Shown here piece after piece: positions 6,141-49,927 of a DNA stretch of 64,000 bases (position 1 is the first letter of the stretch; each line of letters opens with the position of its first letter). This stretch comes from Leucoraja ocellata (Eukaryota). The stretch is taken from assembly GCA_036785375.1 (NCBI GenBank), contig JAWMAR010000160.1, positions 4,278,001 through 4,342,000 of the forward strand. Reading direction: 5' to 3'. A program made the translations under genes and the position numbers. Below the pieces are notes generated by a model that ran no database searches, was not told the DNA's origin, and saw nothing but the letters and a program-made list of their open reading frames with translations.

Positions 6141-9100
6141 ACTCATTTATCAGTTTTACTTGATCTGTGGATAGTGCTGTAAAATTTGTGATCATCATAT
6201 TTGTTGATAAAGTGTTTGTTCTGCAAGTTGTAAAGAGCTTAGATTTGTGCTGACAGTAAACAGTTGGCTATGACATGTGATGTCCCGTAGGTGGCAGTCT
6301 TGTTCCAAAGTTACTCTATTTCATTCAAACCTGGCATCTTTCTGGGATTATTAAGAATTAAATTTGGTTTTTGCAGATAGAACGTGGTAATTTTAAATGT
6401 TCAGTTGATTTATGTCACACCTTTTATAAGCTCTTTTCTCCATTTGCAAACTAGCAGCAAAATTGTATAAATGTAATGTTCAAGTTTCAAGATTTCACGG
6501 TCAGTTTATTTACGTGTACCAATTAAGGTACAGTGAAATACAAATGAACATACAGCCATACTAAAAAAAACATGACACACAACTACATAAAAGTTAACAT
6601 AAACATCCACCACAGTGGATTCCCCACATTCCTCACTGTGATGGAAGGCAATAAAGTCCAATCTTCTTCCTCTTTGTGTTACCAATTCAAGGGTTGTGTT
6701 TATTTCTGGTGCACTGATAATTATTTGCAAAATAGGAAGGAGGAGGTGATGATACCAGGTTCAGTTGTTATGGCATTGACCATAGGTTAGCTGTAGCACT
6801 GCACATTGAGCTGAATAAGAGTTGCATTGTTATAGAGGGCAAGGGTATTGATCTTGTGAGAACATTTCCAGTGCATTGGCATTTGATACTGAAAGCTGCT
6901 TGCTGTATTAAATGGTGTAGCGATGCAATGCATTCTCTCCCATTTGAAACTTGACACTGCTACTTGTCCAGACTGCAAATGAAGTCATAGGGGAATGCAT
7001 TCTGGATGACGTCCAACACTCCCCACTGCTTGTAACGCTTGTTGCTTGCTTTCCCTGATCATTTTCTTGGCTGCAATGCATTATCATTTAAACCTTTCTC
7101 CCTCATCACCTCTATTTCTCTAGGTTTCTGTAACTGGGTTGCTACTAATTTGGCACGGGCAGGAGGACATCTGGTATTTTAGCTGGGAATAGTAATCTAA
7201 TTTCTTGATGTTTAAGGAAATGGGAATGAGAAATTGGGGTACATCAAGGTCATATTTAAATAGCGAAGGAAAGATTATGTGAACCTCTAGTAGAAGCAAG
7301 GAAAGCTGTACCATGGAACTTTGGAATGCTAGGTTTTAGGCTGAACAAAATAGAGAACAAGTGTGACAATGAGAAAGGAAATCAGTTGAACTTGGGTCAA
7401 TGTAATGTCATTACTAGGCTGGGAGATGCCACTAGTGATAATAGGGATGTTCAGTAATCCAGCTGACCATCATAAACTTGCTGGGGTAACTCAGCAGGTC
7501 AGGCACCATCTCAGCAGGACATGGATCAATAGCCTTCTCCAATCTGAAGAAGGTTTCCAACTCAAAACTTCACCTATCCATGTTGTCTAGTGATGCTGCC
7601 TGACCCACTGTGTTACTCCAGCACTTTTCTTTGTAAACCAGAATCTGAAGTTCTGTGTGTCATCGTAAATTTGCTACAGGCCAACTATTTCCCTCGGTAA
7701 AAAGGGGAAAAGCAAGTGGCTTTGTAACAATAACACTAAAAACCTGTCATAGCAATTAGCTTTTTACCACGCTGATTAATTCTTTTCGGTAATTATTTAT
7801 TAAATAATGTTGAAACGTGATGGGTGATTTGGGGATTCAACCTAGGATAGTCTTTGAATTGATATCACTTGCATCAGTTCAACCTTGCTGGGCTGATCAA
7901 GGTACTTGATGTTCACAACAAAAAAACTAATGGTCGCAGCACCCTTTTCTCCATTTTCACAAAGCCCTTGATATCATTTCTCATCCCCTTGGTCCTGATG
8001 TTTGGCTGTCGTGAGGATTATAAATGTTCAGGTTTATGATCTGCTCTGCGTGAAGTTCGACAAAGTATAGTGCAATACATCTTTTGAGGTGCAAATTACC
8101 CCCAACATCGGGGCGTACTTTCTTTTACCTTTTTTGTGACGCAGTCTTGCAAGGGCTTGTATTTTGTGATAGTGCCACGCAATATTTCTCCAGAGAACAA
8201 AAGTGAAATCCAATTTCCTGGCACCTACTCCTTGCCCACATCTCCTTCTTGATATTCTTGTCATGCTGCTGCAAGTAGAAATTTCATTGTTCCATTTTGG
8301 TACATATAACAATAAAACACTCTTGACTCTTGTCTACTGGGATCTATGAAAATGTATCACTCCTTGAAACAGCTTGAAATCTGTACCTTGCCCTTTTCCC
8401 TCAATTTCAGCTTTTTGAATGTCACATTTTTACATATATATACATGTTCATCTTGACTATTTCTCAACATTGTTGGTGACTGTGTTAATGGAAAAGAGCA
8501 GTTTAGTTTAGTTGAGTATATAAAGGCTAACCTTACACAAAAATAATAACCATACACAAAAATAATAAAACAAAGCTGGGAAAGGAGGAATCTGCTTTAC
8601 CGTACACGGGCTTCTTGGATTCATGAGCAATACTGTGAAATGATAGCTAGAATTTATACCAAAAAAATATGTTTTCAAGAGAGAGTTAGATTTAGCTCTT
8701 AGAGTGCTGATTTTGGATGCAGCCATGATCACATTGAATGGCGGTGCTGGCTCGACTGGCTGAATGGCCTACTCCTGCACCTATTTTTCTATGTTTCTAT
8801 ATTAAGGGGGTAGGAAAAATGTAGATGTAGTAGTTATGCCACAAGCATGAAAGGTTAAATAGCCTCTACCCAGAGTGAATGGGATGTGGAGCTAGTTAAA
8901 TAACAATATCCTTATACAAAATATCCTTATGCAAAATCTGAAATAGCAAAGCTAGCTAATATTTTAGAGGTGCGTGTACTTTTCTGACTGTTTACTCATT
9001 ATAAAGGGATTAAATTGTATTTAAATTAACGGAAGTGGTTTAGATGTCAGGAAGCAAGACTCTCCAGAGGATCCGGTTCCAGGTGGTTAGTGGCAAATCT

Positions 9101-12669: not shown

Positions 12670-13410
12670 TAATTCTCAACACCTGTGTCCTGCTAAGATG
12701 CGTTATATGCCCCTTACTGTACTCCCTCACACACTCATAATTGTGTGGCCAATCCTGCTCTTAACTCCATTTACAAATTTGCAGGCGACACCACCATAGT
12801 GGGCCAGATCTCAAACTATGACAAAATAGGAGTACAGTGATGAGAGAACTTAGTAACATGGTGTCAAGACAGCAACCTGTTCCTTAAAGTCAGCAAAATG
12901 AAGGAGCTAGTTATTAATTTCAGGAAAGTAAATGGTGTACATGCCCCAATGGTGTTGATCTGCAGATGGACGTGTTTTCACGTTACTTGTAATAAATATC
13001 ACCAACAATTTATCCTGATTCAACCACAGCAAGGAAAGTACACCGACGCTTCTATTTCCTCAGAAGACAAAGGAAGTCAAACGTGGCCCCAATGATTCTT
13101 GTCGGGATACATCACAGCTTGGTTTGGCAACAGCTCTGCCCAAGAGTGCAAGAAATTGCAGTTATGGATGTAGTTCAGTCCATCACAGAAAGGATCCTCC
13201 TTCTCCACCCCCCCATTGACTCCATCTACACTTCACTGCCTCAGGAAAACAGCCAACATAATGAAGAACCATTTGCACTCCGATCATTCCTTTTCGCCCT
13301 TCAATTATTTGGGCAGAAGATTAAAAAAATCTTGAAAGTAGCTACCACCAGATTCAGGAACAGCTTCTTCCTCACTGTCATCAGACTGTTGAACAGAATT
13401 CTCATAAGCT
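12670..13410 (+). mobile_element. Rex1/Babar-like LINE reverse transcriptase and 3' fragment (pseudogenised)
   Basis: Reads CVICPLLYSL.TH...SIYKFAGDTTIVG (FADD-like motif), KELVINFRK and TTRFRNSFFLTVIRLLN. Confidence 0.75.
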
Positions 13411-14816
13411 AAGGTTGAGTTGAATGGATAACATGCAAAAAGAGTTTTAGACTAAAGATAGACACAAAAAGTTGGAGTAACTCAGCGGGACAGACAGCAC
13501 CTCTGAAGAAAAAGAACAGGTGATGTTTCGGGTTGAGACCTTTCTTCAGACTCACAATTTTACAGTATCTCAGTTCATGCAACCAAAATATACCAATACT
13601 AATTCCTTCTAGAACTTTTTCCAGGTTACACCAATATAATATTGTGGGAGCAGTATTTAGTATGATGTAGTCAATAGCTACAGCTTTACAACACAGCCAC
13701 ACCACCACCAATAATGATTTTCAAGAAAGTTAGCTTAGCATGGGTTAGGCCCTTGTCACCCATAAATCTACGACATTGGATCCATAATTGTAAAGGCTGA
13801 ATCTCCCAATCCAGTTCTCGGTTTCGGTGAGACATTTCACTAGAACTTACCCAGGAATAAAGACGTAGTTGAGCAAATTCAACTTGTCATTGTTGTGAGC
13901 CCTTGGGGGGGGGGGGAAATGTGAAAATTATGTCCTATTGTCCACATACCGCTGTCACTTTTCAAATCTAATGCCTATTACAATCATGAATTTATCGTGG
14001 AGGTTGAATGCCCTTGTGGCGAGCAGCTCGTCCCATTTGCAAACTTTGCACTCACTAAATACCCCATTAACCCACTTACAATCAAAAACACTGATGAATG
14101 TTTAGAATCAGAAAAACAATATAGAATAGTGGGCTATTCTGTAAGTGGCCTTGTGACTTTGGTCTCTGTATTCAATGGAATAAATGGACAGTCGCTGCAC
14201 ATTATATCTTGTTCATGTCGTATAGCGTTAGCCAGCTCTCTAACACTATAGCACATTTTGTCATGATAATTTACAATTATAGATCTAATGTCATATGTTT
14301 AGACTGCCATTCTCAACTCCTACAGTTCCCGTGAAGTTGCTGTGGATTTGTGTAACCATTGACTTTAAGCGAGAAATCTGTGTGAACCCTTCTGTGATCT
14401 TTGAGTGGCATTTCTTAAGCAACATGGCATGAAGCATAGACTGCTGTCCCGCTGTTTGACATTTTGCAGTCTTATTGTAACATTGAGATCAACTGCACAT
14501 TTTCAAAGGCATCTAGGATCACCAGCCTCTCCTTAGAGGATCATAGTTTCAAGGCATCACACTATTGCTGCAGAATGTTAGAGGAAAACCTGCCTTCATT
14601 TTGAGTTACTATTATAAGGCTTTGAACCATCTGTACAAGTTTATTATTGTTGTCAGCATTAAATCAGTATGCCTCGAGGGATCCTGATAATAACTGGCTG
14701 CCTTAGTCCTCAAAGTAATCTTCAAACTCCAGCTAACCATATTTTGTATCATCTTAGATTGCCCTAATTAGGCTCATTGACTTCCTCTTTGAACAGTAGC
14801 ATGAGATGATGAGAAA

Positions 14817-15075: not shown

Positions 15076-15214
15076 TGTCTTCTTCTTGCGTATGGCATGC
15101 ACAGCCTAAAGTTGTAAGACAACTTGTTCTGTTTGATCTTCTGTTTGTGCACGCCAGGTTGATTGCATTTGTTGAAACAGGGTGGACCACGTGAAGGTTG
15201 CAATCTCCCACCCC
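15076..15214 (-). mobile_element. Short retroposon headed by an HDV-like ribozyme, copy 1
   Basis: TSD tcttagggaa at 15066-15075 and 15215-15224. Near-identical to 49249-49389. The - strand ends in ..gaagaaga. Confidence 0.85.
15161..15214 (-). ncRNA. Minimal HDV/CPEB3-like ribozyme fold (copy 1)
   Basis: GGGGUGG GA GAUUGCA ACC UUCACGU GGU CCACCCU GUUUCAA CAAA UGCAAUC. P1 is 7 bp with G1.U, P2 7 bp, P3 3 bp, L3 UUCACGU, and the catalytic-position C is retained. Confidence 0.8.
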
Positions 15215-48096: not shown

Positions 48097-49248
48097 GGTG
48101 TAACATTTTGAGAGATGGATCCATTGAATGGTTGGTTTGTCAGCATGCTTTTTGCCTGGATTTTTTCAGCGCAATCCTAATAGTTCCCTTCTTTCTTCCC
48201 TCTGTAAGGCCAATGTCACCAGATCTCTGCTGTTTGGACCTTATCCCTGACCAAGTTCAGCTTAGCTTTCATTTCATTGGTACCTAGAACCACAGTGATT
48301 GTGTTTGAACTGAGTTGATATCTGATTCAACAGTAATTTTGTTTCAAAACACTCAATCTCTCTTTTCAGATGGCTTCACACCTCCTTGTCTCTGCAATCT
48401 ATAGTACCAGAAGTCTTCAAGGTTATCTGGGTTTCTCTGATTTTAACTGTCTTGTCATTGGTAGCTGTGCCTTCAGCTGTGAAGCTGAAGTTCTGGAATA
48501 TCATACGATCATGTGATAGGAGTAGAATTAGGCCATTCAGCCCATCAAGTCTACTCCGCCATTCAATCATGGCTGACCTATCATGGCTAACCCCATTCTC
48601 CTGCCTTCTCCCCATAATCTCTGAGACATCAAGAATAAATTGAAACACTTAACCTCTCTACTTCATTTTCCTTCAATATAATCCTTAAAGCCTATCTCTT
48701 TGACAGAGTTATTGGTTGTTCTTGTAAATTGTGGTGATTGGAGTTGATAGCACTCGTATGATGAGTATTGGGGCGTTTTACTTCATAAAAATATGTTATT
48801 ATTGTTCCTCATGCTCTTCCAGGTTTGTCAGGCTCAAGGTTCTGTGGGTCTTTTCTGGGGAAAGCTGCAGTGATCCACTGTTGATTAGGTTTTTATACAA
48901 TTCAGTTTTATGGGATTTAGGCATCACTGACAGGCATTCCATGTATTAACTGTCCTAATTCGTTTTTTTGTGAAGATATCCCTGTTTATCAAAAAACATT
49001 TGGAGCACCAAATAAGAATAGCAACTTGAGGGGTAACGTTTTTCACGCAAAGGTTGGTGGGTGCATGGAACAAGCTGTCGGAGGAGGTAGTTGAGGCAGG
49101 TACCATCGCAACGTTTAAGAAACATTTGGACAGATACATGGATATGTCAGGTTTGGAGCGATATGGGCTTAAATGCAGGCAGGTGGGACTAGAGTAGATG
49201 GGACATGTTGGCTGGTGTGGGCAAGTTGGGCTGAAGTTGCCACACTGT

Positions 49249-49389
49249 CTTCTTCTTCTGGCATATGGCGTGCACAGCCTAAAGTTGTAGGACAACTTGT
49301 TCTATTCGATCTTATTTGATTGTGCACGCCAGGTTGATTGCATTCGTCGAAACAGGGCGGACCACGTGAAGGTTGCAATCTCCCACCCC
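49249..49389 (-). mobile_element. Short retroposon headed by an HDV-like ribozyme, copy 2
   Basis: TSD ttgccacactgt (49237-49248) / tttccacactgt (49390-49401), 11 of 12 matching. (GAA)n tail on the - strand. Confidence 0.85.
49336..49389 (-). ncRNA. Minimal HDV/CPEB3-like ribozyme fold (copy 2)
   Basis: GGGGUGG GA GAUUGCA ACC UUCACGU GGU CCGCCCU GUUUCGA CGAA UGCAAUC. The nested double pseudoknot pairings are intact and J4/2 is CGAA. Confidence 0.85.
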
Positions 49390-49927
49390 TTTCCACACTG
49401 TAAGACTATGACTAGTGAGAGATTCACTTTGGATATAATGTGAGCTGCATGCAAGCAACATTGTGCTTTACCATAGAACCCCACGCATGTTGGCCTTTAA
49501 TGTTCCCAAATGATCTGCTGACTGTTGCCACAGTTGGACGGAATTATCAGTCCAGCTGTCAATGTGGACATGATGCTGTTTTCTGAATTTAGGGCTCATT
49601 CAGAGATTATCATTGACGAGAGGCTTATGTAGAAAAAGCTTCATTACAAAAGTACAGGATACAGAGGTTGCTCTCCAAATTTATAATGGACTGAATTAAC
49701 CCATGCTATTTACCATGGCACAGCTGGGCAAATGTTTAATGATTGCCACTGATTTTTAAATGTCATCCTAAAGCCAGAGTGGTGAGCCCTCTGACCCGTT
49801 CCTCAACAGGCGATGCTGATCCAGCTGGATAAAGGCCCCAATCAAAAGCGATAATATCTTCCGACTGTTTTTCACAAATGTGTCAACCGTCGTGTACAAG
49901 GGATAAAAGCGATTTAATTTTGAGCCC

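Follow-up and report, generated by a model that had tools for sequence, protein, structure and literature searches.

A 141-nt retroposon family of an animal genome with a predicted P4-less HDV/CPEB3-type ribozyme at its 5' end, and its candidate Vingi-like partners

The window, a 64-kb stretch of DNA, carries on its minus strand a 141-base element (49389-49249), whose copies support its assignment to a multi-copy, non-autonomous retroposon family with an HDV/CPEB3-type 5' end. The first 54 nt likely adopt a fold that self-cleaves before their first base, G1. The reading favoured here, with a probability of about 0.7, is that this P4-less fold cuts itself out of longer transcripts, and that the resulting uncapped RNA of ~135 bases is copied back into the genome by the proteins of a Vingi-like LINE. 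It draws on a repeat family with target duplications at G1, on pairings that covary between two families, on RNA 5' ends in a relative, and on ribozyme-headed Vingi-like LINEs residing in the same genome.

Organization of the element

Re-reading of 49389-49249 gives the same letters as an earlier note on this DNA, and recovers the P1, P2 and P3 helices, L3, J4/2 and the (GAA)n end described there (Table 1). The ribozyme layout proposed in that note stands, with one refinement: P4, which it called almost absent, is absent and not merely short. The head fits a nested double pseudoknot made of P1, P2, P3 and P1.1 in the right order, and has all the core bases of HDV-like ribozymes (G1.U, U20, C22, G25 and the C that opens J4/2). 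The core shared by the CPEB3 and HDV ribozymes is described as G1.U, U20.G25, a one-pair P1.1 and a catalytic C in first position of J4/2 (PMC4836649). As in minimal HDV-like ribozymes, P4 is absent, and L4 counts 5 nt in both short families presented below. The window copy is identical to the family majority at 54 of 54 head positions. Its target duplication is 12 bp long, with 11 of 12 positions alike between the two copies, and the 5' copy ends on the base immediately preceding G1, so that the abutment claimed from the sequence holds. The insertion site is an older common repeat, which the element interrupts.

Table 1. Features of the element, of its relatives and of the candidate partner LINEs
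Feature	Position	Strand	Remarks
Target-site duplication, 5' copy	49390..49401	-	12 bp; last base adjoins G1
Predicted 54-nt P4-less HDV/CPEB3-type ribozyme fold	49336..49389	-	predicted cleavage 5' of G1 (49389)
P1	49389-49383 with 49360-49354	-	7 bp, GGGGUGG/CCGCCCU, G1.U
J1/2	between P1 and P2 5' strands	-	2 nt, GA
P2	49380-49374 with 49342-49336	-	7 bp, GAUUGCA/UGCAAUC
P3	49373-49371 with 49363-49361	-	3 bp, ACC/GGU
L3	49370-49364	-	UUCACGU
J1/4	49353-49352	-	GU
L4	49351-49347	-	5-nt loop UUCGA
J4/2	49346-49343	-	CGAA
C44, predicted catalytic cytosine	49346	-	opens J4/2; corresponds to HDV C75 and CPEB3 C57 as described in PMC4836649 and PMC10879173
Predicted long 3' stem-loop (element positions 59-124)	49266..49331	-	-24 kcal/mol; internal deletions often shorten it
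Terminal AYRC motif and (GAA)n tail	49249..49265	-	resembles 3' ends of LINE families A and B (Vingi-like)
Target-site duplication, 3' copy	49237..49248	-	follows the (GAA)n tail
Second, more diverged family copy	15078..15214	-	10-bp duplication; intact descriptor match
S2 copies	L210:4935-5113; L274-L293	L210 -	P4-less head
LINE family A	L197:443-3571; L194-L208, L214-L234	L197 +	~3.13 kb; begins at G1 of a full ribozyme
LINE family B	L226, L221, L241, L354, L355	L226 -	found by protein searches
Two further, rarer Vingi-like families	L349; L350 and L358	L349 -; L358 -	ribozyme-like heads; (TAAA)n or (GAAC)n tails; also from protein searches

A topology descriptor, composed with the sequence already known, matches the window twice, at the element (49389) and at the second family copy (15214); with the window dinucleotide-shuffled 100 times and the element shuffled 20,000 times, it finds nothing. 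It also recognised the heads of unrelated LINE families among the loci retrieved. The Rfam models leave the head undetected, at gathering score over the window as well as at E<=10 locally, and the 141-nt family gives no match to CPEB3_ribozyme (RF00622) and does not reach its gathering threshold of 35 bits. Pseudoknot-free minimum-free-energy folding of the element is unremarkable (z -1.42).

No tRNA gene is found in the element, and the best fits to A- and B-boxes are partial, both located in the 3' half and in the wrong order, in agreement with the claim that a tRNA-like pol III head is lacking. A reading as a pol III SINE was therefore rejected, no tRNA, 5S or 7SL head and no ordered A/B boxes being present. 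With its 141 nt, the element is devoid of coding capacity.

Copies and ends of the 141-nt family

A 20-mer taken from the core matches the genome assembly (G000, 3.44 Gb) exactly at 7,148 places and, when reversed, at none. The copy number, a quantity that the earlier note had proposed to establish, is at least 7,148, a lower bound in which some matches are segmental or tandem duplicates. The same 20-mer has 0 matches in viral contigs. Full-length distinct copies diverge from the majority by 5% on average (61 copies, 5 of 66 having been left out as partial).

The copies begin at G1. When loci are chosen by the 3' 75 nt alone, the head is present in 23 of 24 distinct loci, the remaining one having an internal deletion, and G occupies position 1 in 22 of these 23; this set is blind to truncations inside its query. 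Loci taken in positional order give G at position 1 in 25 of 27 distinct cases. Duplications of at least 8 bp flank 22 of the 27 positional loci, and 20 of them end directly before G1, as compared with 19 of 300 random places in a control with a somewhat narrower search window. The upstream flanks are unrelated from copy to copy. The pile-up of 5' ends at G1 that had been suggested as a check is thus observed in the sampled copies. A search designed to avoid typical copies returned loci that keep only the last ~30 bases (12 of 23), which is the pattern produced by target-primed insertion. The most frequent variants of the head lie in J1/2 (G8A), in the U5.G32 wobble, which becomes U-A, in L4 and at position 2 of J4/2; CpG decay is also seen, C44U (6 of 61 copies) being one instance.

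Dispersed copies, variable duplications, a simple-repeat 3' tail and some 5'-truncated copies are the marks of a non-LTR retroposon. Together with the copy number, the ends at G1 and the lack of coding capacity, they bear out the claim of a non-autonomous multi-copy retroposon.

Some loci depart from the usual arrangement. A copy identical to that of the window, flanks included, and with a perfect duplication lies 229 kb from the window copy (L002, G000:C160:4097991-4098131) and is a segmental or haplotype duplicate of it. On contig C1, a tandem array of ~2-kb units holds one element copy in each unit (L091, G000:C1:19261000-19270999); a retrozyme-like multimer was considered for it and rejected, the flanks being identical, as in a local segmental repeat. 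Mini-copies with target duplications of their own (L063, L128, L097) include a form of ~80 nt, made of the ribozyme and the last ~25 bases, and one copy of ~60 nt, and give a hint of the minimal mobilisable unit.

A second short family and covariation of the helices

A second ribozyme-headed short family (S2) is ~173 nt long, with 1,290 first-look candidates. Its spacing matches that of the 141-nt family (5-nt L4, C-N-A-A in J4/2), with different helices and, in most copies, a P1 3' strand of 6 nt. Between the two families, 10 of 18 pairs are changed on both sides, across P1, P2 and P3, so that the covariation looked for is present, essentially as one family-level contrast between two families, with few independent events. 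Over ten copies from the two families, 98.9% of cells are paired, as compared with 35-49% in slid-partner controls. The G1.U pair and the C-N-A-A of J4/2 are retained across families. The S2 head scores 32.3 bits against the Rfam CPEB3 model (gathering 35) and aligns with the head of LINE family A (E 4e-7); the 3' end of S2 resembles that of LINE family B.

Candidate partner LINEs

LINE family A was found with a core pattern permitting a longer P4. It possesses a single ORF, interrupted in all copies seen, and many copies are full-length from G1. Its protein, scanned in pieces, harbors APE endonuclease and reverse transcriptase (RT) domains and gives no RNase H match, and an RNase H domain is absent from all 120 homologs listed; these come from lizard, lancelet, sea urchin and insects (48-57%). 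The family A head reaches 60.4 bits against the Rfam CPEB3 model (gathering 35). The head of family B is of the HDV/R2 type, with an A1-U pair, a GG junction and a long P4, and its P3 is that of the element. Both families are ~3.13 kb long and display (GAA)n tails, duplications of 7-11 bp and copies 94-97% alike, a likeness comparable to the 5% mean divergence of the element.

Vingi LINEs are defined by a single ORF with APE endonuclease and RT, no RNase H and a length of about 3.1 kb (PMC13708176), and Vingi-2_Gav measures 3,128 bp (PMC5786205). The candidate partner LINEs, as judged from the pieces of family A, share this architecture (single ORF, APE and RT, no RNase H, ~3.1 kb); the name Vingi-like is given here from it and from the 5' ends printed in the supplement of PMC5786205.

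The ends of the four Vingi-like families do not align with the element beyond the core motifs and the tail (best E about 2, in a non-exhaustive search). Four pattern searches, with 23, 9, 2 and 194 matches (30 of the 194 examined) and with patterns excluding neighbouring bases typical of the short element, returned no parent LINE; every match examined was rejected as a truncated, deleted, mutated or interrupted short copy. Element positions 8-18 (window 49380-49372 region) coincide with 11 bases of the family B 3' UTR at E about 2-4, a match that was set aside as probably due to chance.

RNA ends at G1 in a relative

Parts of the element are present in 20 listed runs from 13 studies and eight organisms; none of these runs is registered as RNA, which weighs neither for nor against transcription. 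Raw reads were taken from two single-cell RNA runs of one study (X21 and X22), from a relative (organism A) linked by species label only; they are non-independent and were viewed as consensus rows, not as single reads. Loose ends at G1 occur in 1,930 of 2,777 reads in X21 and in 1,619 of 2,604 in X22. These ends share, as their consensus, a fixed 30-mer (agreement 0.72 in X21 and 0.68 in X22), carried by ~47-62% of the loose-end G1 reads as estimated from the agreement, which we take to be the template-switch adapter. It is also found at an unrelated antisense position (55 reads). At the G1 junction, the three G of the adapter are additional to the four G of the element, and no further base is inserted. 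Template switching on capped RNAs mostly adds one extra base, whereas ~90% of uncapped RNAs gain none (PMC6885630), and adapter junctions without an extra base at G1 are thus the signature of uncapped ends. Strand invasion fails to explain these junctions, since a genomic G is found at -1 in only 5 of 51 loci; it would furthermore merge the G of the adapter into those of the element, whereas the observed ones are additional. No tabulated molecule starts are listed for X21 or X22.

Sense reads outnumber antisense reads 3- to 4-fold. The C44U change is depleted among them (97 of 3,842 sense reads, 2.5%, vs 61 of 990 antisense reads, 6.2%), and C24U and G25A are about halved, while changes in L4 are undepleted. 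G32A, predicted to be harmless, is depleted to a similar extent (sense ratio 0.40, vs 0.41 for C44U), and in X22 alone the C44U depletion has p 0.058, so that locus or subfamily bias may contribute. In the bulk oligo-dT runs, 1,160 and 986 reads continue past G1 into mixed flanks, which indicates that uncleaved transcripts are common. Adapter junctions at the internal GGG (positions 6-8) are absent among the rows listed, the smallest of which hold 55 and 48 reads. Loose ends resembling poly(A) directly follow position 124-126 (360 and 334 reads); they may stem from priming by oligo-dT within the A-rich tail, and are set aside as evidence.

Proposed mechanism and alternatives

In the proposed mechanism, a sense copy, probably without a promoter of its own, inside a host read-through transcript would fold as a ribozyme and cut before G1, with C44 as the putative general acid. 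Cleavage would release a short RNA without a cap, with its 3' end at the (GAA)n tail or close to it. Family A and/or B would supply the endonuclease and the reverse transcriptase, the Vingi-like protein priming reverse transcription at the nick and leaving a duplication of ~11 bp. The cut falls upstream of the entire ribozyme, so that every new insertion would carry the ribozyme along; the precision of the 5' ends would follow from this.

The same ends could arise if the head were an internal promoter with its start site on or adjacent to G1, whether by itself or along with cleavage, and if the fold served stability or protein recognition. Positions 22-27 read CACGTG, an E-box-like site, and the changes depleted in sense reads include C24 and G25. 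A capped RNA beginning at G2 would moreover yield an identical adapter junction, and there is a precedent in Pr77 of L1Tc/NARTc, both promoter and ribozyme (PMC3383444). A cap at G1, however, is expected to leave an extra base that the junction lacks, neither a tRNA gene nor ordered A/B boxes are present, and G1.U and C-N-A-A are conserved across families; an internal promoter is accordingly considered unlikely. Less likely again is that the fold, as a relic of a Vingi head, has weak catalytic activity or none, the ends at G1 reflecting stalling of a 5' exonuclease at the pseudoknot or a G-rich library bias. Such a relic would fit the missing P4 and the many read-through reads; template switching is reported to prefer a 5' G (PMC6885630), and strand invasion can be drawn to G-rich starts (PMC4534009). 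Yet P4-less HDV-like ribozymes of the theta type are described as active (PMC10879173), the catalytic positions are kept in two families while the helices covary, and a library bias toward G runs sits poorly with the lack of junctions at the GGG of positions 6-8 among the rows listed.

As for the partner in self-cleavage-driven mobilisation, the earlier note had pointed to an RTE-like LINE. LINE families that we take to be RTE are present in the genome, and 50 of their loci were examined (30 top matches and 20 chosen from 150 listed). Where locatable, their 3' ends are (CCA)n, (GAT)n or GGCCTAC, and their copies are older (~72-93% alike); among the 50 loci sampled, none matches the element at E<=1. 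Bipartite derivatives are known from four clades, RTE among them (PMC5786205), and other RTE families may exist in the genome, but an RTE-clade partner now appears very improbable and the proposal is not upheld. The shared tail, duplication length, age and ribozyme core point to a partner that is likely Vingi-like rather than RTE.

Comparison with known systems

Some metazoan LINEs and SINEs use HDV-like ribozymes (PMC6765202), and the concept of a ribozyme-headed short retroposon is already known from R2 SIDEs and NARTc. The trypanosomatid elements NARTc, RIME and SIDER, of the L1Tc/ingi clade, are likewise short, non-autonomous and dispersed, with an HDV-like ribozyme that cuts before +1 (PMC3383444). 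They are mobilised by an Ingi-related LINE (PMC3383444). NARTc is described, however, as 263 nt long, with P4 kept, a poly(A) end and a 77-nt head 97% shared with L1Tc (PMC3383444), whereas the present element has 141 nt, no P4, a (GAA)n end and no parent found with alignable ends. The R2 SIDEs and R2/R1 hybrid SIDEs of Drosophila combine a 5' ribozyme with a LINE-recognised 3' end and are released from a co-transcript, and their heads diverge from that of the LINE through compensatory changes (PMC3414825). They are site-specific for rDNA and of low copy number, R2Dwi_SIDE measuring 529 bp (PMC3414825); the element, in contrast, is dispersed in thousands of copies and carries a minimal ribozyme.

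The bipartite derivatives of Vingi, RTE and Ingi (Kojima 2018) are similarly non-coding, without a small-RNA head, and have a LINE-type 5' end (PMC5786205). By eye, the Vingi 5' ends printed in the supplement share the L3 / CCCUGU / CGAA core with the element (PMC5786205). In that paper, Vingi is not among the ribozyme-bearing clades listed, and CPEB3 is unmentioned (PMC5786205). The element fits this class in these respects; the non-exhaustive search found no autonomous parent with alignable ends that would trace it to internal deletion.

The mammalian CPEB3 ribozyme (RF00622) has the same L3, G1.U, one-pair P1.1 and CGAA; the likeness in L3 and CGAA, already drawn in the earlier note, agrees with the published core (PMC4836649). 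The CPEB3 ribozyme is a single intronic ribozyme with P4 present (PMC4836649), whereas the element head has no P4, other P1-P3 sequences, and is missed by the Rfam model. The minimal ribozymes theta and drz-Mtgn resemble the head in lacking P4, in their short L4 and in the catalytic C first in J4/2 (PMC10879173). Nearly 99% of these minimal ribozymes come from phages, often beside tRNAs (PMC10879173), whereas the minimal fold described here heads an animal retroposon.

New relative to the SIDE/NARTc kind are the size, the P4-less ribozyme, the copy number and the animal host. A literature search, outside Dfam and Repbase, found no account of the 141-nt family or of a link between Vingi and CPEB3, a prior mention being possible; the family may already bear a name in a repeat library.

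Relation to the CPEB3 ribozyme

A broader view, for which the odds seem a little better than even, is that the CPEB3 ribozyme is a domesticated descendant of Vingi 5' heads. These heads would here have shrunk to a 53-54-nt P4-less form driving two promoter-free mini-retroposon families, with thousands of active self-cleavage sites in host transcripts. The likeness of a Vingi-like LINE head of the same genome to the CPEB3 ribozyme (60 bits against the Rfam model) makes the origin of the ribozyme testable by phylogeny and by a search for Vingi remnants in the CPEB3 intron. If the head cleaves, the element would be among the smallest ribozyme-defined retroposons, its copies could cut host pre-mRNAs, and HDV-like ribozymes without P4, known almost entirely from phages (PMC10879173), would extend to an animal genome in thousands of copies. 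As a natural template of 141 nt, it would also delimit the cis elements that Vingi proteins minimally require; these proteins are under development for gene insertion (PMC13708176).

Other CPEB3-like loci were encountered. A variant of the CPEB3-like ribozyme scores 48.8 bits, above the gathering threshold of 35 (L209:5001-5076, minus strand), with no LINE body recognised in the 260 bases behind it; it may be a solo head that was retained, or else an old remnant of a Vingi element. A metagenome scan with the Vingi/CPEB3 core motif gave 6 loci, with no LINE among them. Four of these were dismissed, as they looked like chance bacterial matches, and the other two represent one CPEB3-like locus on two metagenome contigs (L189:4852-4941, plus strand, and L190), with a CPEB3-family match of 66.5 bits, a longer P4 and CAAA in J4/2; the contigs are probably animal host DNA. 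Within the window, a decayed reading frame lies at 12996-13412 on the plus strand, and resembles the C-terminal part of the reverse transcriptase of another LINE.
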